From contig CAJVXN010000005.1 of NCBI GenBank assembly GCA_913009335.1, positions 110-64,109 on the forward strand: 64,000 nucleotides of DNA. Reading direction: 5' to 3'. This document shows, piece by piece, positions 1,734 through 60,005 of this stretch. The notes beneath the pieces were generated by a model. That model worked only from the letters and a program-made list of their open reading frames with translations, ran no database searches and was not told the DNA's origin. The translations under genes and the position numbers were made by a program. This stretch comes from an uncultured bacterium. GTDB taxonomy: Bacteria > Omnitrophota > Gorgyraeia > Ghiorseimicrobiales > Ghiorseimicrobiaceae. Within the stretch, counting starts at the first letter, position 1. Each line of letters starts with the position of its first letter.

Positions 1734-1992
1734 AATTTAATCCATCCATAAGGTTATTAGTCCGAGAATACAAGAAAGTAAAAAACAAGAAATTATAATT
1801 GTAAGAATAATTTTTTCTATAAACACAATAAAAACCCCTTGTTAAAATACCGAGAGAATTGGTTAAAGGAAGGAGGCTTTGAAGCCTGCGTCCTAATTTC
1901 AACAAGGGGTAAATTCATTTTTTTCTTTGCGTTATACCGTTACGATATGAAATAATTTTTGTTAACCAACTCTCTCGTGTCGTCAATAACTT

Positions 1993-2020
1993 AGTATAAC
2001 AGCCCCTTGTTTTTTGTCAA
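1993..2020 (-). promoter_or_regulatory. sigma70-like promoter on minus strand (TTGACA-16-TATACT), flanked by 11-bp inverted repeat ATACCGTTACG/CGTAACGGTAT (1934-1944, 2036-2046)
   Basis: reverse strand reads ttgacaaaaaacaaggggctgttatact; perfect IR arms 91 bp apart bracket it. Confidence 0.35.
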
Positions 2021-2217
2021 GTTTTATTTGACATGCGTAACGGTATAATGGTTACATCTATTTTGTATCCAGTAAGGCCGGATTCGCCTTTGCTTTTTCA
2101 ACTAATAAACGCAAGATTGCCGACCGGGAATTCTTCAAAGGATTATTGTGCTGTATCTTCCTGTCTAAAAATTCCGTATCAGCCCCGGTTAACATTATCA
2201 TCACCGGAAATTTACGT

Positions 2218-2472
2218 TTATTCGTTTTCACTGATTTTACCATCGTTGCCATCTCCTTTCTTGATTTTTGGCGGTAAAACATATTTAATATTTGCTTTCC
2301 ACATTTCATTAATCAACGCGTTAGCCATTCGTATAAGCAATTCAGGTTTATCAAATGGCGCGTGTACGTGCGCATGCCCTAAAGCGCCATGCGTGATTAT
2401 AAGATGCCCCGCAGGATCTTCAAAGTGCAGATTATCTTGCGTATCTTCACAATTTAAAAACGGACATTTCAT
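2218..2472 (-). CDS. hypothetical small Cys/His-motif protein (CPxxxC ... HVHxP), same motif as N-terminus of the 934-aa glycosyltransferase
   Basis: KCPFLNCEDT...GHLIITHGALGHAHVHAPFDKPE aligns with ECPICQKSLGNFNEEIVSHLAVFKGASGTNHVHGPIEDKE of ORF 14618; overlapping ORF 2058..2309 is therefore less likely. Confidence 0.4.
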   Translation of the reverse strand: MKCPFLNCEDTQDNLHFEDPAGHLIITHGALGHAHVHAPFDKPELLIRMANALINEMWKANIKYVLPPKIKKGDGNDGKISENE

Positions 2473-22424: not shown

Positions 22425-23657
22425 ATGAATAAACAAAATTTAATTCAAAATGCGATTATTTTTCAACAACCGATTTATCATTTTGCAGCGCAGCTTTTAG
22501 AAAAAAGTAAACTAAAGGCTGTGCTTGATATCGGCTGTAGTTATCCAAAAAAGTTAGAAAAATTTATTCTTCCTTTAACTTCGGATATTACAGGGATAGA
22601 TTTACCGGAAACAATTAAACTGGTAACAAGTGAAGTAAATTTTGGATCATGGATTTCTTGTGATATAGAAAAAGATAAAATAGAATTAAATAAGAAATTT
22701 GATTTAATCATTTGTTCCGATATAGTGGAACATCTTGATAATCCTGAAAAATTATTTTCTTTGATTGAAAAATGCAGTAATGACGATACTTACATTTTAA
22801 TTTCTACCCCTGACGCTACATCTACATTGAAACAATCTAATGGTAGGCCCGCGAATATTCTGCATAAAAGAGAATGGGATAGGGTTAATTTTGAGAATTA
22901 TTTAAAAAAAAGCGGATTTGATATATTGCAGAGTAAATATTATATAGAACAAAATTGCCATCCGACTTATATCTGTAATTATTTTTTATGTAAAAAATCA
23001 AATATAAGAAAAAAACATATTTTAATTACAGTGCCTAATGTACACTGGATACACCAACATGTTACGCACAGGCTTTTAATGCTTCAAAAAGATATCCGCT
23101 ATAATTTAACATTTAAACTTCCTTCACATAAACCTTATGTGAATAATTTACATCATATAGTCAATGATTTTATCTCGGGAAATTATGATTTCTGGTTGAA
23201 TATCGATGCTGATAATCCGCCTCAAGAAAATCCTCTTGATTTAATTGAATTAGATAAAGACATTATAGGGCTACCTACTCCCATTTGGCATTTTACGAAT
23301 AAAGGAAACAATGAGAGGCCTGTATACTGGAATGCTTATGATTATCTTTCAGAAAAAGACGCTTATGCTGAACATGAACCAAAAAAGGGATTACAGAAAG
23401 TTGACGCGGTAGGGACAGGTTGTATTTTAATCGCGCGCAGAGTATTTGAAAATCCTATTATGCGGCAAGGCGCATTTATGCGTAAATGGAATAAAGACGG
23501 CACAGTAGATAAAGGAAATGATATGGCTTTTGCCGAAATAGCAAGGAATCAGGGATTTAATATTTATGCTCATTATGATTATCCTTGCGACCATATGTCG
23601 GAATTATCTTTAAATGAAACAGTAAGGGCTTTTACTAATTTATTTGAGGCAAAATAA
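22425..23657 (+). CDS. bifunctional methyltransferase / GT-A-like glycosyltransferase (putative)
   Basis: N-terminal class I MT motifs VLDIGCSYP ... FDLIICSDIVEHLDNPEKLF; C-terminal DADNP and DAVGTGCILIARRVF resemble the DxD and acceptor regions of GT-A transferases. Confidence 0.55.
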   Translation: MNKQNLIQNAIIFQQPIYHFAAQLLEKSKLKAVLDIGCSYPKKLEKFILPLTSDITGIDLPETIKLVTSEVNFGSWISCDIEKDKIELNKKFDLIICSDIVEHLDNPEKLFSLIEKCSNDDTYILISTPDATSTLKQSNGRPANILHKREWDRVNFENYLKKSGFDILQSKYYIEQNCHPTYICNYFLCKKSNIRKKHILITVPNVHWIHQHVTHRLLMLQKDIRYNLTFKLPSHKPYVNNLHHIVNDFISGNYDFWLNIDADNPPQENPLDLIELDKDIIGLPTPIWHFTNKGNNERPVYWNAYDYLSEKDAYAEHEPKKGLQKVDAVGTGCILIARRVFENPIMRQGAFMRKWNKDGTVDKGNDMAFAEIARNQGFNIYAHYDYPCDHMSELSLNETVRAFTNLFEAK

Positions 23658-26395
23658 TGAATACTCCGTGGTGCGGCGCCCAAGAAGACAAACTTTATCT
23701 TCAATCCGGGCAGTTCAGTTCTACTTTAAAGACTAGTTTAAGTATTGTGAATTTAGATTATACTCCTTACGGAATTTCCTGGGATGGCACTGACACTCCT
23801 TGGTGTGGTCATACAGTTGGTACTCTTTGGCTTCAATCCGGGCAATTCAGCTCTACTTTAAAGACTAGCTTATATGTAGGAGGGGTCGACACGGATCTTT
23901 ATGGAATTTCCTGGGACGGTACAAATACTCCTTGGTGCGGCTATCAAGGAGGCAAACTCTATCTTCAATCAGGTCAATTCAGTTCTACTTTAAAGACTTC
24001 ATTATATATAGGAGGGGTTGATAACGACCCTGAAGGTATTTCTTACGATGGTACTAATACTCCTTGGGGTGGTTGGACTAATAGTAAACTCTATCTTCAA
24101 TCCGGGCAGTTCAGTTCTACTTTAAAGACTAGCTTATCAATAGTTACAAACCCAAGTGGTATAACTTACGATGGTACTAATACTCCATGGAGTAGTTATA
24201 CAACAGATAAACTCTACCTTCAATCCGGGCAATTCAGTTCTACTTTAAAAACTAGTTTATATGTTGGAGCAGTTGATACGGCACCTGGTGGGATAAGTAC
24301 AGATGATATAAATGCAAGATTAAGCGGGGCTTCAAGCTCTTCCAGCTCTTCAAAATCTTCTTCGAGTTCTTCTTCTAGTATAGGCAGCTCAAGCAGTTCG
24401 AGTCTTTCATTAAGCTCAAGCTCATCAAGTAGTTCTACTTTGCCGGCAGCAGCTTCGACCAATACTCCGTGGTGTAGTGGTTTTGCTGGTAAAATGTTTC
24501 TTCAATCCGGGCAGTTCAGTTCTACTTTAAAGACTTCAGTATATACAGGAGGAATTGATACAGGTATAGGAGGTATTTCATGGGATGGAACCAATACTCC
24601 TTGGTGCGGTTTTACGGATGATAAACTCTACCTTCAATCCGGGCAATTCAGCTCTACTTTAAAGACTAGCTTATATGTAGGAGGGGTCGACACGGATCTT
24701 TATGGAATTTCCTGGGACGGTACAAATACTCCTTGGTGCGGCTCCCAAGAAGACAAACTCTACCTTCAATCAGGTCAATTCAGTTCTACTTTAAAGACTT
24801 CACTGAGTATAGTTACGATTATTAGGGGAATATCTTCTGATGGTTTTAATACTCCTTGGTGCGGCTATCAAGGAAGCAAACTCTATCTTCAATCTGGGCA
24901 GTTCAGCTCTACTTTAAAGACTTCATTATATATAGGAGGAATTGATTTAGGCGTTTGGGGTATATCTTGGGACGGTACTGATACTCCTTGGTGTGGAAAA
25001 GAGGCAGATAAACTCTACCTTCAATCAGGGCAATTTAGTTCTGTATTAAAAACATCGCTTGATATTAGTGGAGTTGCTATTAACCCTCAAGGTATCACCA
25101 CAGACGATATAAACGCGAGATTAAGCGGGGCTTCCAGTAGTTCAAGCAGCTCAAATAGCTCTAGCAGTTCAAGCAGTTCAAATAGCTCTAGCAGTTCTAG
25201 TTCTTTAAGTAGCTCAAGTTCAAGCAGTTCATTAAGCTCTAGTTCTTCGAGTAATTCAAGCAGTTCCAGCAGTTCCAGTTTATCTAGTTCAAGCAGTTCA
25301 AATAGCTCTAGCAGCTCAAGCAGTTCAAATAGCTCTAGCAGTTCTAGCAGTTCAAATAGCTCAAGTTCAAGCAGTTCATTAAGCTCTAGTTCTTCCAGTA
25401 ATTCTAGTAGTTCCAGCAGTTCCAGTTTGTCTAGCTCAAGCAGTTCAAATAACTCTAGCAGTTCAAGTAGTTCAAATAGCTCTAGCAGTTCAAGTAGTTC
25501 AAGCTCTTCCAGTAATTCAAGCAGTTCCAGCAGTTCTTTGAGTTCTAGTTCTTCTAGCAATTCTAGCAGTTCGAGTAGTTCCAGTTTATCTAGCTCAAGC
25601 AGTTCAAATAGTTCTAGCAGCTCCAGCAGTTCATTAAGTTCTAGTTCTTCCAGCAATTCTAGTTCTTCAAGCAGTTCTAGTTTATCTAGCTCAAGCAGTT
25701 CAAATAGTTCAAGCAGTTCAAGCAGTTCATTAAGCTCTAGTTCTTCCAGTAATTCTAGTAGTTCCAGCAGTTCCAGTTTATCTAGTTCCAGCAGCTCAAA
25801 TAGCTCTAGCAGTTCAAGCAGTTCAAATAGCTCTAGCAGTTCAAGCAGTTCATTAAGCTCTAGTTCTTCGAGTAATTCAAGCAGTTCTAGCAGTTCCAGC
25901 AGTTCATTGAGTTCCAGCTCTTCCAGTAATTCAAGCAGTTCTAGCAGTTCCAGTTTGTCTAGTTCCAGCAGTTCAAATAGCTCTAGCAGTTCAAGCAGTT
26001 CATTAAGCTCTAGTTCTTCGAGTAATTCAAGCAGTTCCAGCAGTTCCAGTTTATCTAGTTCAAGCAGTTCAAATAGCTCAAGCAGTTCCAGCAGTTCAAA
26101 TAGCTCTAGCAGTTCTAGCAGTTCAAATAGCTCTAGCAGTTCAAGCAGTTCATTAAGTTCTAGTTCTTCGAGCAGTTCATTAAGTTCTAGTTCCTCAAGC
26201 AGTTCTAGCTGGCCAAGTTCATCTAGCAGTTCATCTAGTTCGAGAAGTTCTAGTTCTTCATTAAGTTCTAGCAGTTCATCAAAGTCAAGCAGTTCGTCGG
26301 CCTCTCTATTTGAGAAATTAGTTTATTTCAGTGATGAAACATATAATTATGAAATGAGTGAAGATACAAGCAATTATGAATTCGCGGCACAGTAA
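23657..26395 (+). CDS. repeat protein: about 12 x 40-aa NTPWCG/KLYLQSGQFSSTLKTSL/GISWDGT repeats, two poly-Ser segments (second about 390 aa), short acidic C-terminus
   Basis: direct reading of the ORF translation; repeats visible at both DNA and protein level. Confidence 0.7.
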   Translation: MNTPWCGAQEDKLYLQSGQFSSTLKTSLSIVNLDYTPYGISWDGTDTPWCGHTVGTLWLQSGQFSSTLKTSLYVGGVDTDLYGISWDGTNTPWCGYQGGKLYLQSGQFSSTLKTSLYIGGVDNDPEGISYDGTNTPWGGWTNSKLYLQSGQFSSTLKTSLSIVTNPSGITYDGTNTPWSSYTTDKLYLQSGQFSSTLKTSLYVGAVDTAPGGISTDDINARLSGASSSSSSSKSSSSSSSSIGSSSSSSLSLSSSSSSSSTLPAAASTNTPWCSGFAGKMFLQSGQFSSTLKTSVYTGGIDTGIGGISWDGTNTPWCGFTDDKLYLQSGQFSSTLKTSLYVGGVDTDLYGISWDGTNTPWCGSQEDKLYLQSGQFSSTLKTSLSIVTIIRGISSDGFNTPWCGYQGSKLYLQSGQFSSTLKTSLYIGGIDLGVWGISWDGTDTPWCGKEADKLYLQSGQFSSVLKTSLDISGVAINPQGITTDDINARLSGASSSSSSSNSSSSSSSSNSSSSSSSLSSSSSSSSLSSSSSSNSSSSSSSSLSSSSSSNSSSSSSSSNSSSSSSSSNSSSSSSSLSSSSSSNSSSSSSSSLSSSSSSNNSSSSSSSNSSSSSSSSSSSSNSSSSSSSLSSSSSSNSSSSSSSSLSSSSSSNSSSSSSSSLSSSSSSNSSSSSSSSLSSSSSSNSSSSSSSSLSSSSSSNSSSSSSSSLSSSSSSNSSSSSSSSNSSSSSSSSLSSSSSSNSSSSSSSSSSLSSSSSSNSSSSSSSSLSSSSSSNSSSSSSSSLSSSSSSNSSSSSSSSLSSSSSSNSSSSSSSSNSSSSSSSSNSSSSSSSSLSSSSSSSSLSSSSSSSSSWPSSSSSSSSSRSSSSSLSSSSSSKSSSSSASLFEKLVYFSDETYNYEMSEDTSNYEFAAQ
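25130..26300 (+). repeat. 48-nt (16-codon) tandem repeat encoding [L S6 N S8]n
   Basis: periodic agcagttcaagcagttcaaatagctctagcagttc... units; antisense reads LELLEL artefact ORFs. Confidence 0.8.
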
Positions 26396-26406
26396 AGGAA
26401 TAAAAG

Positions 26407-27928: not shown

Positions 27929-29518
27929 GTGGTAGAAATAATTATAAAAAAAGAAGAAAGAATTGATTGGCAAAAGGAAATTGCCAAAAGATCTATATCT
28001 GACGCGAAGCAATGGCAGATAAAAGAATATCGCCGCTGCGCCGAAGATAAAGAATATTGGTTTAATAATTATGTATGGGTAATTAATACTAATATAAAAA
28101 CAGGCGATGCGATAATCCCTTTTAAACTTTGGCTCCACCAAATAAAATTGTTAAAGCAACTCGATAAATATATGGATTTGTTTATCGATAAAGCAAGAAA
28201 GCTAGGCATATCTTGGTGTGTTATGGGATGGGAACTTCATCAGGTACTTTATACTAAGGTATTTACTGCGTTAAATATCTCCCGTAAAGAATCAGAAGTC
28301 CAAGATCCGGGAAATACTTTTCATTCTTTGCATGGCCGCCTTCATTTCATGTATAAGAGATTGCCGCCTTTTTTACAACCTAGAATACACAATCCGTTTC
28401 TTACATTTTCTGTTCCATCTATGAATTCAATAATAAGAGGCGAATCAGCTAATCGTAACGCGGGCCGTGATACACAGTATAAATTTGTACTTATAGATGA
28501 AGCGGCGCACGTAGAGTGTTTAGACGAGATGTTCAAAGGTGTAAGAAATGCTACAAACGCGATGTGCCTTAATTCCACTCCGCCTAAAGAGAGCGTGAAT
28601 AATAAATTCGCTGAAATAAAAGATATGAAGAATTCAGGATTTATTAAAATGAGATTCAAATGGAATGAAAATCCTGAACATACACAGGAATGGTTTAATA
28701 AAAAAACCGCATCGATGACAGAAGAAGAAATCGCGCAAGAATTATTGATAGGATATGATAAAGCGATGACGAATAGGTCATATCCAGAGTACGCTGATGC
28801 TCAACATCTTTTAGGGCATAAAGTTTATCTTAATCCTAAATCAAAATTGTATGCTTTTATGGATTTCGGCCTTGACGGCGAAGGATGGATTTTCGCGCAA
28901 AAAGATTTTCAGGATAGGTTATTCTGTATTTATTACGAAATATTTAAAAATAAATTAACTCCGGAGCTTTATGCTGAATTTATAAAAAGCCTTGATGCGA
29001 TAGGTTATACTGGGTTGATAAGCGACATTGTTTTTATTGGTGATAAATCCGGCAACAAAAGAAGCCGGTTGACTAAGACAAGTGTGATAGATGATTGGAA
29101 GAAAGTATCAAATGGCGAGATTGTAATCCACACAAGGGAATTATCCAATGATGAAAAAATGCGGTGTGTAAAAATGTGTTTTAAGAAATACATTAATGGC
29201 CGGCCGCAATTTAATATATCAAATTCTCCGACATGTCTTGAATTGGCCAAATGCATAAAGAACGTTACATTGAATAAGACCGGAGCGGATCATATAGATA
29301 ATAAGCATACGCATGCTGTAAATATGTTAGAATATGGAATAAATTATATATTCCCAAAAACCAAAGCGGCAGGGATCCTTGTAGAATTGAATCCAGGAGA
29401 TGAAGTAAAAGATAATGATGGAAAAACAATCGGTAAAGTATCTAATACTGTACGCGCGGCTTCTGCTTCTGCCGCGATAGGATCTCATAGAATAGAAAGG
29501 ATTAGTTTATATGCTTAA
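27929..29518 (+). CDS. terminase large subunit
   Basis: size 529 aa, ATPase Walker B FVLIDEAAHVE, C-terminal nuclease-like acidic residues, synteny. Confidence 0.75.
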   Translation: MVEIIIKKEERIDWQKEIAKRSISDAKQWQIKEYRRCAEDKEYWFNNYVWVINTNIKTGDAIIPFKLWLHQIKLLKQLDKYMDLFIDKARKLGISWCVMGWELHQVLYTKVFTALNISRKESEVQDPGNTFHSLHGRLHFMYKRLPPFLQPRIHNPFLTFSVPSMNSIIRGESANRNAGRDTQYKFVLIDEAAHVECLDEMFKGVRNATNAMCLNSTPPKESVNNKFAEIKDMKNSGFIKMRFKWNENPEHTQEWFNKKTASMTEEEIAQELLIGYDKAMTNRSYPEYADAQHLLGHKVYLNPKSKLYAFMDFGLDGEGWIFAQKDFQDRLFCIYYEIFKNKLTPELYAEFIKSLDAIGYTGLISDIVFIGDKSGNKRSRLTKTSVIDDWKKVSNGEIVIHTRELSNDEKMRCVKMCFKKYINGRPQFNISNSPTCLELAKCIKNVTLNKTGADHIDNKHTHAVNMLEYGINYIFPKTKAAGILVELNPGDEVKDNDGKTIGKVSNTVRAASASAAIGSHRIERISLYA

Positions 29519-30899
29519 AAAAAGTAAGAAATTAAAAGAGTCCAGTTCTATTGAATTGGCAGGAGATAAAGTTATTTCTTTTAAAGAAAGAGAAAAAAGA
29601 TCAATAGAATTAAAGAATCGCATAGCCGAATCATATCCTATGGTAGGCGGCGCGTCTGATGATAATTTATGGCGATCACTGAATCAATTAACAAATCGTG
29701 ATTTATATACTCTCACGCAAAAAAGGATGCAGGATATAGCATTTTTTCTTTATGATTCAAATCCTATGGCTAAAAGGATTTTAGAGATTATGCGTGATTT
29801 TGTAGTAGGCGATGGTTTTAAATATTCAGTTGTAGATCCCGGGGTTAAAGAAGTTATTGATAATTTCTGGAATGATCCAGATAATAATTTAGATGAAGAA
29901 TTAGATACAAATGTTTTAGAATTGGGAATATTTGGAGAACTATGTCTTCCTACGTGGGTTAATGGGGCAGACGGATCCGTGAAATTAGGATATATTGATC
30001 CTGTTACTATATTAAGAGTATTCAAGGATAAATCAAATCCTAAGATACATCGTAAATTAAGATGGAAAAAACCGAAAAGTCCTAAAGAAATAGATTTAGA
30101 TATTATAAATATAGACAAAAGAATAACATCGAAAACGGAAGGTAAATTAATAGGAGAATGTTTTTTCTTTGCTATTAATAAGGTAAGCGGCGCTACTCGC
30201 GGAAGAAGCGATTTATTAAGTTTGGCTGATTGGTTAGATGGGCATGATCAATTTCTTTTTGCCCGATTAGAAAGAGCATTTTTAATAAACACATTCATCT
30301 GGGATATTACCTGTGAAGATATGAATGAAAAAGAATTAAAAGAATTTGTTAAAGGTTTAACACTACCAAAATCAGGATCAATAAGAGCGCATAATCAAAA
30401 GATAAAATGGGAAGCTATAGTTCCTAAATTAGAATCTGACGATGCCTCAAATGAAGCAAGACTATTTAAAAATCAGATATTAGGCGGAGCTGGCTATCCG
30501 GAACATTGGTTTTCAGAGGGAGGTAAGACTACGAGGGCTACGGCCCTAGAGATGGGGCTTCCTACTCTTAAAAAATTAAAATCACGCCAAAGGAAATTCA
30601 TTGGTTTTTTAAAAAGGATACTTAATTATGTTATAGACCAGGCAATAATTGCCGGAACATTAAAAGAAGGTGTAAATCGTGAATTTAAAATTATCCCTAC
30701 ACCTATTGTTTCGAGGGATAATAAAGGCGTATCAGAAGCGATGTCTGGATTAGTTTCCGGTTTAGTTCTAGCAAAAGAACAAGGATGGATTACTGACAAA
30801 AAAGCAAAAGTGGTTCTCAATGCCGTACTTTCTCAATTAGGCGTTGAAATGGAAGCTGATGAAGAAGAAAAGAAGGAGGAGAAACAAAATGAAGAATAG
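29511..30899 (+). CDS. portal protein (putative)
   Basis: 462 aa directly after terminase, acidic C-terminus EEEKKEEKQNEE; synteny-based. Confidence 0.55.
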   Translation: MLKKSKKLKESSSIELAGDKVISFKEREKRSIELKNRIAESYPMVGGASDDNLWRSLNQLTNRDLYTLTQKRMQDIAFFLYDSNPMAKRILEIMRDFVVGDGFKYSVVDPGVKEVIDNFWNDPDNNLDEELDTNVLELGIFGELCLPTWVNGADGSVKLGYIDPVTILRVFKDKSNPKIHRKLRWKKPKSPKEIDLDIINIDKRITSKTEGKLIGECFFFAINKVSGATRGRSDLLSLADWLDGHDQFLFARLERAFLINTFIWDITCEDMNEKELKEFVKGLTLPKSGSIRAHNQKIKWEAIVPKLESDDASNEARLFKNQILGGAGYPEHWFSEGGKTTRATALEMGLPTLKKLKSRQRKFIGFLKRILNYVIDQAIIAGTLKEGVNREFKIIPTPIVSRDNKGVSEAMSGLVSGLVLAKEQGWITDKKAKVVLNAVLSQLGVEMEADEEEKKEEKQNEE

Positions 30900-32103: not shown

Positions 32104-32160
32104 TGACAAACTATCTTTTTTCAGGCTATACTTTAAATAGTTATCCACAGGTTATCCACA
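32104..32160 (+). promoter_or_regulatory. promoter (TTGACA-17-TATACT) followed immediately by two consensus DnaA boxes
   Basis: acttgacaaactatcttttttcaggctatactttaaatagTTATCCACAggTTATCCACAgg; the same 22-bp box pair occurs at 10717-10738. Confidence 0.4.
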
Positions 32161-32246
32161 GGAATATTATACCATTTGAACCGGCAACATCCGGAAAATA
32201 GCAATAAGTTGATTAAGTAAGTAAGAATTGCCGGAGAAATGATATA

Positions 32247-54230: not shown

Positions 54231-55703
54231 TCATTGCATTCTCCTTTTCGATATATCAACATATTCTTTTTTTAAATCATTCCCGATGTAATTACGGCCT
54301 AATTTTTTTGCCTCCGCGCATGTACTTCCCGTACCGCAGAATGGATCATAGACAATACCTTTTGGCGGACATGCAGCAAGGATAGGTGTTGTAATTAATC
54401 CTTCCGGGTAACTCGCGAAGTGTTTATCTCGAGATGGTTTTGTTGATATTGTCCAGACACAACGTTTAATCCTTCCCTTAGGATTAAATTTCCAAGTTTT
54501 AGAATGAGGATGCTTCCTTTTTTCATGCGCGGGATATGCTTCTCCGGGTACGCCGCCAAAAGAATGCTTCATCCTTTTTGCTGTTCCATCTTTGCATGGT
54601 TCATACTGCGTTTTGAAATAATAATTTTTATTTTGTGTAAAAAAAAGCAATACTTCATAGTCAACCGTGAAACGGTCTTTGATCGAGGAAGGCATGCAGT
54701 TTGTTTTATGCCATATAATTTTACTGCGGAGTATCCAACCACGACTTACCATTTCGATTGCGAATCTTTCCGGGATAAGTAAATCGCATTTAGGATTTGA
54801 ATATTTTAATACCGGTTTAGGTTCAGGCAATTCTATGTTGATATTTACTCTTTGATTTAATTTATGAATAATATTAAAAAGTATTTCTCTATATTTTAAG
54901 TTTTCCGGCTTAACAAATTTTCCATTCTTTTTTGCTTTAGTATTATTACATAAAGCGATGAGGATTTTAGCTTGTTGTTTTTTAATAAGTAAATCAGGAT
55001 AGATTATCTGTGCTAATATTCCTGCTTCTTGTCCTCTAACGCTCCAATCCCATACGCCTCTATTTTGTAATCCTACAGAACCTAAATTTGTTATAGAATG
55101 TGCTTTTTTAATCATTTGATCGTCAATCATACCTACAGATATATCTGCTTGATAACTTGGCACACAATGATCTCTTTTCTGTTTATGGATTTGTATAGAA
55201 CCTTCTCCATCTATAAGAGCAGCAAGCCATGATCTATCTTTGTCAGAAATCATTTGTGTTTCTACTCTGCCATAAGTCGTTCCCATATTCACCCATAATG
55301 ATCCTGTATCTTTAAGCGGCCTTTTTAACCTTGTAAATACATCGCAAAGATGCTTGACGTATAAATTGAAGTCCGGTTCTAATCCTAACGATCCGCGCCA
55401 TGCGCCGCATTTATTACAGAAATCAGAATACGTTGCCCTGTCTTTATAATCTACCGCAAAACTTCCTTCATTTCCTTTTTGCATTTTAGATTTACCGCCG
55501 GATTGATTCGGCCGATGTGTTCGATGTTCTATCCAATCATGTATACATCCGGGAAGTCCATCCCATATCTGCTTAGATAATCCATAATCTCGCAGCGCGA
55601 AATATGGCGGAGAAGTTATAGCACAATCAATTTTGTTTGCCGGCATTTCATCTAAAAATTCCCGACAATCGGTATGATGGATTTTATTTATTAGATTTTT
55701 CAT
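54231..55703 (-). CDS. DNA methyltransferase (beta-class N6-adenine/N4-cytosine) with LAGLIDADG-like insertion
   Basis: N-terminal motif IV CAITSPPYFALRDYG, C-terminal motif I DPFCGTGSTC, IIWHKTN block; inserted about 190-aa segment containing SWLAALIDGEGSI. Confidence 0.8.
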   Translation of the reverse strand: MKNLINKIHHTDCREFLDEMPANKIDCAITSPPYFALRDYGLSKQIWDGLPGCIHDWIEHRTHRPNQSGGKSKMQKGNEGSFAVDYKDRATYSDFCNKCGAWRGSLGLEPDFNLYVKHLCDVFTRLKRPLKDTGSLWVNMGTTYGRVETQMISDKDRSWLAALIDGEGSIQIHKQKRDHCVPSYQADISVGMIDDQMIKKAHSITNLGSVGLQNRGVWDWSVRGQEAGILAQIIYPDLLIKKQQAKILIALCNNTKAKKNGKFVKPENLKYREILFNIIHKLNQRVNINIELPEPKPVLKYSNPKCDLLIPERFAIEMVSRGWILRSKIIWHKTNCMPSSIKDRFTVDYEVLLFFTQNKNYYFKTQYEPCKDGTAKRMKHSFGGVPGEAYPAHEKRKHPHSKTWKFNPKGRIKRCVWTISTKPSRDKHFASYPEGLITTPILAACPPKGIVYDPFCGTGSTCAEAKKLGRNYIGNDLKKEYVDISKRRMQ

Positions 55704-56300: not shown

Positions 56301-56363
56301 TTTAGATTTCTCCTATTTTTAGAAATTTGTTGTAAGTCGTTGTGAATAAACAATATTCATTTT

Positions 56364-56620
56364 ATACCGTTATATAGTGCTAAACGCGTTGATTATTGTT
56401 ATGTATCAAGGGGTTATAATATTAAACTAACGCGTTATACCGTTATTTCCATACGCGAAAATACTATTTTTTTTAAAATACAACTTTTTTTCTGGGAAAT
56501 CCTAAAGAGTAAAAAAATCATTATTATCTCCTTTGGCGTAACGATGTAACGCGTTAGTTTTTTGTTATAACTCATTGAAATTTCAACATAATCAACGCGT
56601 TTAGCACTATATAACGGTAT
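56364..56620. repeat. nested inverted repeat: perfect 33-bp outer arms (56364-56396 / 56588-56620), 14-bp inner arms, four AACGCGTT palindromes, AT-rich centre
   Basis: ataccgttatatagtgctaaacgcgttgattat and its exact reverse complement 191 bp apart; inner aaactaacgcgtta / taacgcgttagttt. Confidence 0.6.
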
Positions 56621-56915
56621 GGATCATTTTTCTTTGTGTAAATATATATTTATTTTTAACATAGCCTTCTTTCACAGCTAAAATTTTCTTTCTTCTTTCT
56701 TCTTTAATTTTTTTCAATAAAACGCGGCGTTTTTTAAAATATTGCAATATTCTTTTCCTATTTTTTTCTCTGTATTTTTGTTGGTATTCTTTTCGATTAT
56801 CTTTATGCTTTTGATAATATGAATCAATAGGAGTTTTACAGCCATTACATTTTTTACTTGCGATAGTTTTACATAGATATTCTTTTCTGCATTTTTGACA
56901 AATTTTTTTAAACAT
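56607..56915 (-). CDS. hypothetical basic zinc-ribbon protein
   Basis: CQKCRKEY...CNGCKT, then Lys/Arg-rich. Confidence 0.45.
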   Translation of the reverse strand: MFKKICQKCRKEYLCKTIASKKCNGCKTPIDSYYQKHKDNRKEYQQKYREKNRKRILQYFKKRRVLLKKIKEERRKKILAVKEGYVKNKYIFTQRKMIHTVI

Positions 56916-56919
56916 AAAA

Positions 56920-57438
56920 TTATCTTAATGTAAAAATTGCTGGTTGGTTTTTTCCACCTTTAACTTTTTTAATATATTCTATCTTATTAAGTTTAATTAA
57001 TTTAAGGACATATTTTTTTACTTTACAAAGTTTCCATCCTAACAACGCTATAATGTCTTTATATCTAAATTCTTGAAGATGGGATTTTTCTATATCATTA
57101 TAAAAATTATTAAATAGAATAGAAGAAACATATTTTTGGTTCTTTATTCTCGGTGTATAATAAATAACACCGGATAATAATTCTGTTAAGTTTTGTCTTC
57201 CTCGCGTTAATAAAGAATGATGATTAGGGCAAAGATTATATTCTTCTCCTCCTTCGTGATGAGTATCTATCGTTGCATTCCATCCACAAATAATACATTT
57301 ACGGTACTTTTTCTTATTCTTTTTTATTGAATTACGGCAGGTTTTTGAGCAAATATTATGACTTCTGAATTTAGATAAAAATATTTCCCCGCAAATACTA
57401 CATGTGTGTTTGTATGGAATTGATCCTTTTATCTTCAT
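56920..57438 (-). CDS. HNH endonuclease (putative)
   Basis: CIICGWNATIDTHHEGGEEYNLCPNHHSLL HNH-like motif plus N-terminal Cys pairs. Confidence 0.5.
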   Translation of the reverse strand: MKIKGSIPYKHTCSICGEIFLSKFRSHNICSKTCRNSIKKNKKKYRKCIICGWNATIDTHHEGGEEYNLCPNHHSLLTRGRQNLTELLSGVIYYTPRIKNQKYVSSILFNNFYNDIEKSHLQEFRYKDIIALLGWKLCKVKKYVLKLIKLNKIEYIKKVKGGKNQPAIFTLR

Positions 57439-60005
57439 TCCAATAACCCTTCCGGGGCATCTGCTTGTAATGGATTTATTGCCACTCCTGATATTGGATT
57501 GTAAAAGATTTCAGTAGAGCAAGGATATTTATCATATAAACTTTCTACGGATGGCAAGAATCCTAATGAATCACTAGACCATTCTAAGCCGCGTTTAGAT
57601 ATTTTAAATACTGATGCTTTCCCTTTTCCGCCGATTCCTTTTTCCGCGTAGTCAAGCAATCCGGCCTTGACTAAAACGTACGCCCATTTTTTTATCTTAT
57701 CTACTTTCCAATCCATGTCTTCGGCCAGATCGCGGTATTTAAACGTGTATTCCATAGATTTATGATCATCATCCGGCACATAACTATCGTTTAACAGTTT
57801 GATTGCTTTCCATAATTCTTCCGCGGCAGGGCCAATTTCATAAATAGTGTATGTCAATATCGCTTCTGCCGCTATTTTAGCAATATAATAATCCGCTAAA
57901 GTAGATATAAGATGTATCTTATCTCCTTTAGCTTTTTCCTGTTTTCTATGGAATTGATGCAGCATTGTAATTATTTCTATCAATACTCGAAAACGTTCCC
58001 TATCGCGCCGAATACGTACAGGCTTATCCGGAAAGCTGCTGAATACTTCCTTAGCATAAGGAATAATTACTTTAAAATCAGGATTGAGTAATCGTTGAAC
58101 ATTTTTCCAAAGATTTAGATGCTGTTCTTCAATGATAAATTCCTCACCCTGGGCTTTACGTATTGTTATATCTCCGATAGCGGTTGTTAATTGAGGAGAA
58201 TCATCACTGAATACAGAAAAATTCCTTGTTTCATTTTCATCGAACATCTGCGCTTTAGTTGTCGTAATAAGAAAACCTACAGGGCCTTTTACTTTCTTCG
58301 TTACAGTTTCCATGGCCCCTGTATTCGGGTCCTTAATAGGCATCATTAATATTAAGTCTCCCTCTGACTGAGCCGTTCTAATAGAATAATCAGCGCTTTC
58401 AGATCCAGGGAGTTCATTAATATAAATAATCCTATGCTGCATTCCGTCTTCTGGGAGGTGATAGAAAGCATTTTGAGTGGCACGAGTGATAAAATGATAT
58501 CCCTCCTCAGGGATAAGTCGTTGTATATTTTGGCATGAGAAAGATTTTCCACTTGATGATTCTCCTTTTACTGTTATCGACAGAGGATCCTTCATTATCC
58601 TTGACGTATAACATAGATAAACCATTAACCGGACTACTTCATCGCCGACAACGCCCATTTTATTTGTAATGTCGATGACGCGATATAATATGTCCGGAGT
58701 ATTTTCAAGGAATTTAACAGCTTCATCCTTTTCTTGCTCCGTCATAATATAGAGTTGCTTCGGCGTAAGTAATTTATCCTGTTCTTCTTTTTCTAATTGC
58801 TTCTTAACTAAATCGTCTATTGTAATTAAATCAGAATCGAGTTCATCATCATTGGCCGCGTTGATAAAACGCTTGCGATTCGAAGCCATATCTAATTTGA
58901 CTAAGTCTTTATATACTATCTTACTATCTTTAGATAATGTTAAAGATACTTTAAACTTTCCGGCTTTCGTGAATTCGAATCCGGCTAAACGATATTCATA
59001 ATTCTTTTTCCGGAATACCATTGTATCAGCATCTCGAAAAACCATTGTGATAACACCTTCTTCGATTTGTTCTTTACGTAGTTGTGATTCTGTTAACGGA
59101 CATTTTTCTTTATCGCAATATTGTTGTATGATTGGATCTTCACAGCCATAACTTTTATAATTTCCACGAAATACTGAGTTGATTGTTTTAATAAGGTCTT
59201 TACTCGGTAGATGTTGTTTGTTTTTTAAATTCCAATTGCTTATCAGCGTTTCGATATCTTCCCGGGGTATCCCTTTTTCTTTGTAATTTATTACCAATCG
59301 TAAACACGCAATATCACGATTGCCTTTATCGACTCCTTGCTTTATCTTCTCAATACAAGGCAATTCCCGGCTGAATGTTCGATGTTCCGATACCGGAGTT
59401 TCTTTGAGTATAATCGTTTTTCTTTCAAGCTCATTATTCACAATCGTTTCTTCGATATTTTTTACTTCCGTAATTTTTATCTTTTTTAAATCAGGAAGAT
59501 TATCAACAAAAATATTATTAGTATCGTCAACAAAAACAGTTCTTCCTCGCTTAATATCTCCGCCGAATAAAGGAAGAAATATAAAATTACCAAATTGATT
59601 TTCTCCTACTTCGTCTTGCTTTGGAAATATCTCGCACGTAGTATCTAATTCTTCCATTATCATTTCAAAGACAAGCCTTGGTTTTACCGCTTCTATCGGT
59701 TTGTCAAAAAATGTCCATACATGATATCCTTTACTTTTACTGCGTTCAATATGCATATAGACATTGAAATGCGCGGCTCTGTTTTTTATATCTAATGCGA
59801 GATTAAAATCATCTGTGTCAATATCGCAAGCAAGCCACTTTGTCCATATGTTATTGTATATAGGATAAACGCCTATACGTTTTACTCCGTTAATATGATG
59901 TTGATATATTTCTTTCGTCAAAGGCTCTTTTAAACACATCTGATTAAGCCCATGACAATCCTGCCGCCCTGAAAAGAGCTTGATAAAATGATCTACTCCG
60001 GTCAT
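57435..60005 (-). CDS. primase-polymerase (PrimPol) domain fused to SF3/P4-type helicase (phage DNA primase)
   Basis: N-terminal WLACDIDTDD and SKSKGYHVWTFF; Walker A GESSSGKSF about residue 460; 856 aa. Confidence 0.8.
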   Translation of the reverse strand: MTGVDHFIKLFSGRQDCHGLNQMCLKEPLTKEIYQHHINGVKRIGVYPIYNNIWTKWLACDIDTDDFNLALDIKNRAAHFNVYMHIERSKSKGYHVWTFFDKPIEAVKPRLVFEMIMEELDTTCEIFPKQDEVGENQFGNFIFLPLFGGDIKRGRTVFVDDTNNIFVDNLPDLKKIKITEVKNIEETIVNNELERKTIILKETPVSEHRTFSRELPCIEKIKQGVDKGNRDIACLRLVINYKEKGIPREDIETLISNWNLKNKQHLPSKDLIKTINSVFRGNYKSYGCEDPIIQQYCDKEKCPLTESQLRKEQIEEGVITMVFRDADTMVFRKKNYEYRLAGFEFTKAGKFKVSLTLSKDSKIVYKDLVKLDMASNRKRFINAANDDELDSDLITIDDLVKKQLEKEEQDKLLTPKQLYIMTEQEKDEAVKFLENTPDILYRVIDITNKMGVVGDEVVRLMVYLCYTSRIMKDPLSITVKGESSSGKSFSCQNIQRLIPEEGYHFITRATQNAFYHLPEDGMQHRIIYINELPGSESADYSIRTAQSEGDLILMMPIKDPNTGAMETVTKKVKGPVGFLITTTKAQMFDENETRNFSVFSDDSPQLTTAIGDITIRKAQGEEFIIEEQHLNLWKNVQRLLNPDFKVIIPYAKEVFSSFPDKPVRIRRDRERFRVLIEIITMLHQFHRKQEKAKGDKIHLISTLADYYIAKIAAEAILTYTIYEIGPAAEELWKAIKLLNDSYVPDDDHKSMEYTFKYRDLAEDMDWKVDKIKKWAYVLVKAGLLDYAEKGIGGKGKASVFKISKRGLEWSSDSLGFLPSVESLYDKYPCSTEIFYNPISGVAINPLQADAPEGLLE

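Follow-up and report, generated by a model that had tools for sequence, protein, structure and literature searches.

The locus considered here is a large inverted repeat at 56364–56620 of a 64,000-nt stretch of contig CAJVXN010000005.1 (assembly GCA_913009335.1), a stretch referred to below, at its full length, as the window. The question that it raises is which function such a repeat could serve in the genome of a tailed phage, which is what the window was found to be. The only public name attached to this phage lineage is that of a Candidatus Omnitrophica metagenome-assembled genome (MAG), and the window is probably a phage contig that was binned into it. An earlier examination of the sequence (the original prediction) had proposed a multi-operator regulatory site, a second (lytic) origin, or a packaging or recombination site.

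Judged by sequence comparison, the element is a real, conserved DNA module of the protein-binding type, and the most likely identity for it is a replication origin of a kind known before. We assign a probability of about 0.55 to the reading that it is an iteron-type replication origin, the same sites of which give feedback control at the replication operon's promoter. Among the roles proposed before, that of a second (lytic) origin is favoured on account of the conserved place 3′ of a primase-helicase gene, the AT-rich core flanked by repeats, the DnaA-box-like sites in the modules of relatives, and the presence of another origin-like element at 10.4–10.8 kb. The fixed place beside the only initiator-like gene was also counted for this reading, and the lack of a convincing promoter and of a terminator inside the element was listed among the features that point to an origin.

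Structure of the inverted-repeat element

An inverted-repeat search showed the element to be the longest inverted repeat of the window, with arms of 82 nt each (56364–56445 and 56539–56620) that were 84% complementary and separated by a 93-nt spacer. It fills a 306-bp gap between open reading frames (ORFs) at 56301–56606, flanked by two leftward genes, and its right arm covers the last 14 nt of the ORF at 56607–56915; a gap of about 300 bp in the leftward block and the overlap with the 3′ end of this ORF had both been described correctly. When read directly, the outer arms (56364–56396 and 56588–56620) were exact reverse complements of 33 nt with 191 bp between them, in agreement with 12-mer seeds and with the coordinates and distance given before. 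The inner arms consist of aaactaacgcgtta at 56424–56437 and its exact complement at 56547–56560. Their exactness over 14 nt stands, but the distance of about 85 bp in the original prediction has to be replaced by 109 bp, or by a 93-bp spacer when the arms are extended with mismatches. Folded as single-stranded DNA, the element showed an energy of -64.3 kcal/mol, compared to -22.7 +/- 3.3 in dinucleotide shuffles (z = -12.7).

The whole dyad element, the candidate origin, comprises four repeat sets placed symmetrically about an AT-rich core (no strand is assigned to the element or its sets). Set A is the outer arm on the primase side (56588–56620; ATAATCAACGCGTTTAGCACTATATAACGGTAT). It overlaps the ORF end mentioned above, contains one AACGCGTT and one TAACGG, and closely resembles set A of a relative, L012 (TATACCGTTATATAGGCCATAACGCGTTGATT). 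Set B, an inner arm (56539–56560; TAACGATGTAACGCGTTAGTTT), aligns with a block conserved in relatives, (A/C)CGTTA-N3-CGTTAC. Beyond the core, set C (inner arm, 56424–56445; AAACTAACGCGTTATACCGTTAT, on the gene strand ATAACGGTATAACGCGTTAG) corresponds to the block that is best conserved across relatives. Set D, the outer arm beside the downstream 103-aa gene (56364–56396), repeats set A exactly in inverted form; the window shares the far end of set D (..ATAACGGTATAAAAT) with the closest relative, L279. Between sets A and B, a palindrome TTGAAATTTCAA, or spacer motif TCAATGAGTTA, was found at 56575–56586, with a degenerate mirror copy TCAAGGGGTTA at 56406–56416. Spacer motifs similar to CAATGAGTTA were also present in L279, L138 and L149, and TCAATGAGTTA showed no enrichment in the window.

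The four AACGCGTT palindromes noted earlier in the arms (56383, 56429, 56548 and 56594) were confirmed as four of the five sites in the window; shuffles gave an expectation of 0.57 sites per 64 kb, and none of 100 shuffles reached five. Each palindrome consists of two half-sites back to back (TAACG.CGTTA). When the half-sites were counted as CGTTA/TAACG pentamers, the element was the densest spot of the window, with eight perfect copies per 300 bp against about 0.5 expected. Four of these lie on each side of the core (56368, 56428, 56433, 56441; 56539, 56547, 56552, 56612), the left half containing CGTTA three times and TAACG once, and the right half being its mirror image; four further copies with one deviation lie within the outer AACGCGTT sites. 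The core (56446–56538), the presumed unwinding and loading region, contains A and T tracts and has 26.9% GC, compared to 36.3% for the window, which bears out the AT-rich centre reported before. Since sets A and D mirror each other exactly and the half-sites are fused into AACGCGTT, extrusion of the symmetrical element as a cruciform could occur as well.

Conservation of the module in related phages

Relatives were searched for with the primase as query in IMG/VR, JGI metagenomes and ENA/Logan assemblies, which gave about 20 distinct relatives at 65–76% primase identity and one at 55% (L148). There was no cultured relative among the matches, isolates being matched by the AEP domain only (about 25% identity), and no prophage or host relative was found in GTDB genomes. 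An equivalent module was found in the approximately 20 relatives: all those with a primase at least 65% identical carry a non-coding module 3′ of the primase gene, and a homologue of the 103-aa gene of the window comes next. The module was absent from L148. The module follows the primase stop codon directly, or after inserted small ORFs, in L001, L002, L011, L012, L134–L140, L143–L145, L149, L279 and L351/L352, and set A begins 0–60 nt past the stop in L012, L002, L011, L144 and L145.

All modules showed the same plan, with sets A and B on the primase side and sets C and D beyond an AT-rich spacer of 80–115 bp (80 nt in L012, 101 nt in L011), that is, two sets per side in opposite directions. 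The repeat forms typical of the modules are GTAACGGTATAACGGTTTA, AAACCGTTAC and CGTTACGCGTTACGC, spaced at 7–11-bp periods in both orientations, with a consensus of roughly AAACCG(T/A)TAC. An unbiased search for enriched 5-mers placed CGTTA/TAACG among the top four in the modules of 11 out of 13 relatives. In a seven-sequence alignment only the repeat sets were conserved: GGTATAACG of set C was invariant in all seven, and the mean identity was 52%, the sequence between the repeats drifting among relatives. Because the repeats, and not the remaining sequence, are what the relatives keep, the element of the window represents the A-B-core-C-D plan in a compact form of unusual symmetry.

Among the first 14 loci AACGCGTT occurred only in L012, to which L137 has an identical module sequence, so that the palindrome is restricted to the window and the L012/L137 lineage. 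Half-sites of the CGTTA/TAACG type were general, and AACGCGTT as a functional unit, as the original prediction had treated it, was ruled out in favour of the half-site. Sites resembling DnaA boxes (TTATCCACA) were found between sets A and B in L001, L134, L136, L144 and L279, and L140 has one within its module. No TTATCCACA site occurs in the element of the window itself, the boxes of which lie at 10.39–10.77 kb and 32.14 kb.

The position of the module also bears on the suggestion of a miniature inverted-repeat transposable element (MITE) or a similar mobile insertion. The element is short, AT-rich and non-coding and has terminal inverted repeats, as such an insertion would have. However, the window contains it once only and each genome has a single copy, which in close relatives keeps to one syntenic position and diverges gradually; blastn against 50,697 phage records gave no match, the exact arm sequence was absent from IMG/VR, and a 17-mer scan of IMG/VR recovered only a syntenic relative. 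The MITE-like distribution envisaged before was not seen, a mobile element was ruled out on these grounds, and we give this explanation next to no credence.

Dyad symmetry above that of shuffles was found in 14 of 14 modules tested, as expected for head-to-head loading, although it was uneven (z from -2.8 to -12.4). Strong folding could also indicate a role at the RNA level, with a long hairpin in the polycistronic leftward transcript acting as an RNase III site, stabiliser or terminator. The element lies within co-directional genes without a predicted terminator before it, so that it is probably transcribed, and it folds far above shuffles in the window and in several relatives. Against this, the alignment showed that it is the repeat sequence and not the pairing that is conserved; L002 and L012 have set A in opposite orientations, conservation extends to tandem direct copies, and the same repeat stands upstream of a promoter (see below), where it is not transcribed. 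The element contains no T tract and no terminator-like site. Nor did it match any Rfam family at gathering score, weak generic plant microRNA hairpin models falling far below threshold, and a known RNA family or terminator was excluded on these results. An RNA-level role in general appears very unlikely.

The repeat at the replication operon's promoter

A second site with the same repeat was found at 1930–2050 (minus strand), where CGTTATACCGTTACG (1930–1944) and GCGTAACGGTATAAT (2036–2050) form an inverted pair around a sigma70-like promoter. This promoter (TTGACA-16-TATACT with TG, from 2020 to 1993; 11/12 matches) is the best sigma70-like promoter of the region and faces the operon that runs from the SNF2 helicase to the primase. 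The flanking pair is kept in L002, L011/L143, L139 and L351/L352, and L145 has no repeat pair at its promoter. Autoregulation in iteron replicons classically has this layout, in which the initiator's promoter carries the repeat of the origin again, as an inverted pair; such a pair would be equally expected from a dedicated repressor. Because the repeat stands on either side of a strong promoter near 2 kb, the protein that binds the repeats probably regulates transcription as well, and in this respect the multi-operator site of the original prediction holds, though not as the main role of the element, for which an origin is favoured.

The main rival to an origin starts from this promoter. It supposes that the four sets are an operator array without origin function, to which a repressor would bind cooperatively and by looping so as to control or insulate transcription of the genes downstream of the primase block. 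A possible repressor is the product of a 61-aa gene (2058–2243, minus strand) directly upstream of the second site, which encodes a small protein resembling the ribbon-helix-helix (RHH) fold and is the alternative candidate for reading the repeats. Its location recalls that of orf56, which encodes a repressor ahead of orf904 in plasmid pRN1 (PMC4234260). The inverted pair around the promoter at 1993–2020 is kept in five lineages. In addition, a possible -10 box, ..GGTATAAAAT, forms the end of set D in the window as well as in L279, roughly 60 nt ahead of the following gene. Some RHH proteins (omega, MetJ) read repeats at 7–8-bp periods in both orientations, and the period and orientation of the present repeats would suit such a protein.

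The RHH fold is, however, only putative: no family match was obtained in Pfam, PHROGs, NCBIfam or a PDB profile search, apart from a faint NikR-RHH hint for the homologue in L002. The predicted beta-strand for reading DNA differs between the window (KFPVMIML) and L002 (KINILVGF) despite the TTATACCGTTAC sites common to both, and L145 retains the RHH-like gene without the promoter pair. No convincing promoter was found in the element, six sigma70-like sites being present in 1.6 kb against 8.4 expected, the best of which on the gene strand scored 9/12. An operator array also leaves unexplained the DnaA-box-like sites in six relatives, the fixed place by the primase gene and the AT-rich core of 80–115 bp. 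We regard an operator array without origin function as unlikely.

The SNF2 helicase gene has a long leader (1840–1980, minus strand) that showed conserved long-range complementarity (CGAGAGAATTGGTTAA ... TTAACCAACTCTCTCG and CCCCTTGTT ... AACAAGGGG). L139 has a longer leader (2240–2620), with a tRNA-like T-arm (GGTTCGACTCC) at its end. No Rfam match was obtained in the window.

Genome context and candidate repeat-binding proteins

The structural genes of the window run rightward from about 12 to 53 kb and the early or replication block runs leftward, spanning both ends of the window. The early block encodes the SNF2 helicase (120–1733), RNase H, Pam3 gp33/gp34-like proteins, an acyl-carrier-like protein and the primase-helicase, followed by DNA methylases. 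The terminase large subunit (27929–29518) and portal (29511–30899) genes lie about 28 kb from the element, which is itself inside the replication module. This distance argues against the packaging site proposed before. Some pac and cos sites do contain inverted repeats and arrays bound by proteins, but nothing specific to packaging was found here, and we consider a pac or cos function highly improbable.

The candidate initiator is the 856-aa primase-helicase (57435–60005, minus strand), which contains an AEP PrimPol domain, PriCT_1, a P-loop (GESSSGKS) and a predicted C-terminal winged helix (approximately nt 57600–57749). It matched AEP-TOTE (1e-32), PriCT_1 (8e-7) and the PrimPol of PDB entry 7nqf (7e-22). 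Among the early ORFs scanned, there was no DNA polymerase or other initiator candidate, and no partition or integrase gene. The repeats would most probably be read by this protein through its C-terminal winged helix. The C-terminal model (AlphaFold, nine sequences) had a pLDDT of 83–86 over a core with the order beta-helix-helix-beta-wing-beta, and its best PDB matches were nearly all winged-helix DNA binders (CodY, ArsR/SmtB, MarR and the plasmid initiator 4pt7), although these were weak (E >= 0.008).

All relatives with repeats of the CCGTTA type had the same putative recognition helix, WKV(D/E)K(I/V)KKW. In L145, with the helix WNINKVKKW, all repeats were switched to ACCGATAC, the CCGATAC type. 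L351/L352 carry mostly AAACCGATAC repeats, also of the CCGATAC type, together with an unchanged helix (WKVEK) and CCGTTAC-type sites at the promoter. The reader may tolerate T or A at the variable position.

Two small ORFs separate the primase gene from the repeats in the window. The first, at 56920–57438 (minus strand), encodes a 172-aa HNH-like zinc-ribbon protein with a CxxC..HH..N..CPNHH motif, found in this place in some genomes only. Its C-terminal domain is paralogous to the C-terminus of the primase (33% identity over 66 aa, E = 6e-11) and was likewise modelled as a winged helix. Because of this paralogy, the small zinc-ribbon proteins encoded nearby, which the original prediction had named for binding assays, are apt candidates. 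The second ORF (56607–56915, minus strand; 102 aa) encodes a Cys-rich basic protein and is kept only in genomes with the HNH-type gene (L135, L140). Nuclease-like ORFs between the primase stop and the module were patchily distributed among close relatives and had two alternative N-terminal modules, the HNH type (CxxC..HH..CPNHH) in the window, L135 and L140, and a CxxC..HYAKGYC..HY type in L134, L138, L149 and L351/L352. Given this uneven presence and the two N-terminal modules, these genes are add-ons and not the core reader.

It could also be proposed that the element is mainly the target or landing pad of these winged-helix HNH-like or His-Me-like small proteins, that is, a homing or recombination hotspot with the perfect outer arms as a repair product. 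The nuclease-like ORFs with the paralogous winged helix sit exactly in the interval from the primase stop to set A, the inserted ORFs have 22–25% GC, and their patchiness, their two N-terminal modules and gene gain and loss in the surrounding region would fit. But the module is conserved in relatives without such an ORF (L002, L011, L012, L136, L139, L144, L145) and is therefore independent of them. Nuclease activity is suggested by the cysteine-histidine motif and a weak PHROG match only, the fold search having recovered only the winged helix. As an explanation of the element a landing pad is quite improbable. We also hold it doubtful that the genes are homing endonucleases with a captured initiator winged helix, in which case the iterons of the origin would double as a homing address and the 33-bp identity of sets A and D would be a gene-conversion scar. 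In a milder version, the nuclease-like proteins may be origin-binding competitors that tune initiation.

Comparison with known replication origins

If the element is an iteron-type origin, an initiator, most probably the primase-helicase via its C-terminal winged helix, would bind the repeats on both sides of the core, and two initiator complexes would assemble head to head. The AT-rich core would then be melted and synthesis primed there, and binding at the promoter-flanking pair would feed back on expression of the replication operon.

The origins of staphylococcal pathogenicity islands (SaPIs) have 6–12 penta- or hexanucleotide iterons immediately downstream of rep, around an AT-rich centre, with at least two iterons per side in opposite directions, and are read by the C-terminal winged helix of Rep (PMC9371898). 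The present element resembles these origins of SaPIs and phage-inducible chromosomal islands, which use a self-loading helicase (Rep or Pri-Rep), in having eight perfect and four degenerate pentamers; the repeats flank an AT-rich centre with four perfect copies per side in opposed directions, the module of relatives starts directly downstream of the primase/helicase ORF (two ORFs lie between in the window), and this ORF ends in a predicted winged helix. In contrast, the proteins are unrelated in sequence, the present one being a fusion of AEP PrimPol, PriCT and P-loop. In the window the half-sites are fused into AACGCGTT, and there are extra DnaA-box-like sites (in relatives) and the promoter-flanking pair.

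In plasmid pRN1, a stem-loop 54 bp after the gene for an AEP-primase/SF3-helicase/winged-helix protein (ORF904) is essential, and the same arrangement has been noted in phages such as BIP-1; among pRN plasmids the stem-loop structure is conserved and its sequence is not (PMC4234260). [quoted passage not shown] Unlike in pRN plasmids, the repeat sequences are conserved here and the extended pairing varies.

Iteron plasmid origins (pSC101, P1 oriR, F oriS, RK2 oriV) combine iterons of 17–22 bp, an AT-rich region and DnaA boxes in one module, and phage P4 has, besides ori, a second distant cis site with the same repeats (crr). Six relatives combine all three features in one module, and an iteron pair is found at the promoter of the initiator operon; the site near 2 kb is likewise a second, distant cis site with the same repeats. 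However, the present repeats are shorter (5–10 bp) and form a dyad instead of a direct array, and the DnaA-box-like arrays of the window lie in a separate element.

Similar arrays were met by chance in a motif scan. A 14-mer scan with TAACGGTATAACGG gave mostly chance matches, and real inverted arrays, composed of octamers of the TAACGGTA type beside primase or helicase genes, were found only in two unrelated contigs, L044 and L078. In both, TAACGG(T/C)A octamers surround a central spacer. The array in L044, a GC-rich contig, follows genes for a Toprim primase and a P-loop protein (10870–11170). L078 resembles a eukaryotic-virus contig and carries the array twice (1340–1500 and 13765–13960), in inverted orientation and 12.4 kb apart, with one copy abutting the 3′ end of a Pox_D5/DUF5906 helicase gene.

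If the origin reading is true, the origin and the likely initiator are pinned down for an uncultured phage lineage of about 64 kb without a cultured relative, and a large tailed phage joins SaPIs and pRN plasmids in following one rule, by which short iterons surround an AT-rich core placed 3′ of the gene for a self-loading primase-helicase. The family would also offer natural variation for studying the evolution of origin specificity, with CCGTTAC versus CCGATAC repeats and with or without DnaA-box-like sites and winged-helix nuclease-like genes. A fragment with the element together with the primase gene would be a candidate minimal replicon.

Observations that weigh against an origin at 56364–56620

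Several observations speak against the origin proposed here. The helicase part of the primase-helicase has a Walker A motif but is a generic P-loop with weak AAA matches (E = 0.016), and no SF3 family match was obtained for the middle of the protein. The attempt to link repeat specificity to the winged helix gave conflicting results, the covariation of helix and repeat seen in L145 being contradicted by L351/L352. In the window, the two inserted ORFs put 0.8 kb between the primase gene and the element. The AT-richness of the core is moderate (9th percentile of 93-bp windows), although a 60-bp core inside the element has 20% GC (2nd percentile); the small ORFs adjoining the element are equally AT-rich. 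As the repeats act at the promoter near 2 kb, their role could be regulatory alone.

Lastly, the main origin may lie at 10385–10775, or the phage may have two origins. The element there, which is equally origin-like, lies in an 800-bp non-coding gap and consists of TTATCCACAGG boxes arrayed on both sides of a GC hairpin and a (TA)n core. About four boxes (TTATCCACAG) are in one orientation (10388–10452) and four to five in the other (10717–10775), with a GC-rich hairpin at 10478–10518 and the (TA)n-rich core at 10525–10595. The equivalent place in L351 (1895–2419) showed the same plan with different repeats (AAGTGTCGATAA, GTGTCGGGTTTCTTTACA). The 22-mer TTATCCACAGGTTATCCACAGG, which represents the tandem box motif, was found to be very common in IMG/VR (at least 120 contigs), and this suggests that the tandem boxes are read by the DnaA of the host.

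Other features of the window and its relatives

Two tandem TTATCCACAGG boxes were also found between structural genes at 32105–32162, immediately following a sigma70-like promoter (TTGACA-N17-TATACT), and this site looks like a DnaA-box operator. L351/L352 encode a 526-aa protein with ParB_N and HTH_ParB domains upstream of RNase H (7758–9338 in L351); no such protein was seen among the early ORFs scanned in the window.

The gene at 54231–55703 (minus strand) encodes an N6/N4 DNA methyltransferase interrupted in frame by about 270 additional aa. This insertion contains a LAGLIDADG-like motif (LAALIDGEGS) and matches a PHROG annotated as HNH endonuclease (residues 152–286); it could be an intein or a nested endonuclease domain. 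Among the structural genes, the ORF at 23657–26395 (plus strand, 912 aa) showed very extensive tandem repeats with a 9-bp period (AGCAGTTCAAGC-like; 23600–26400). Related 9-bp-periodic repeats were found in other structural genes at 35.7, 42.3 and 46 kb, and these genes presumably encode low-complexity repeat proteins.

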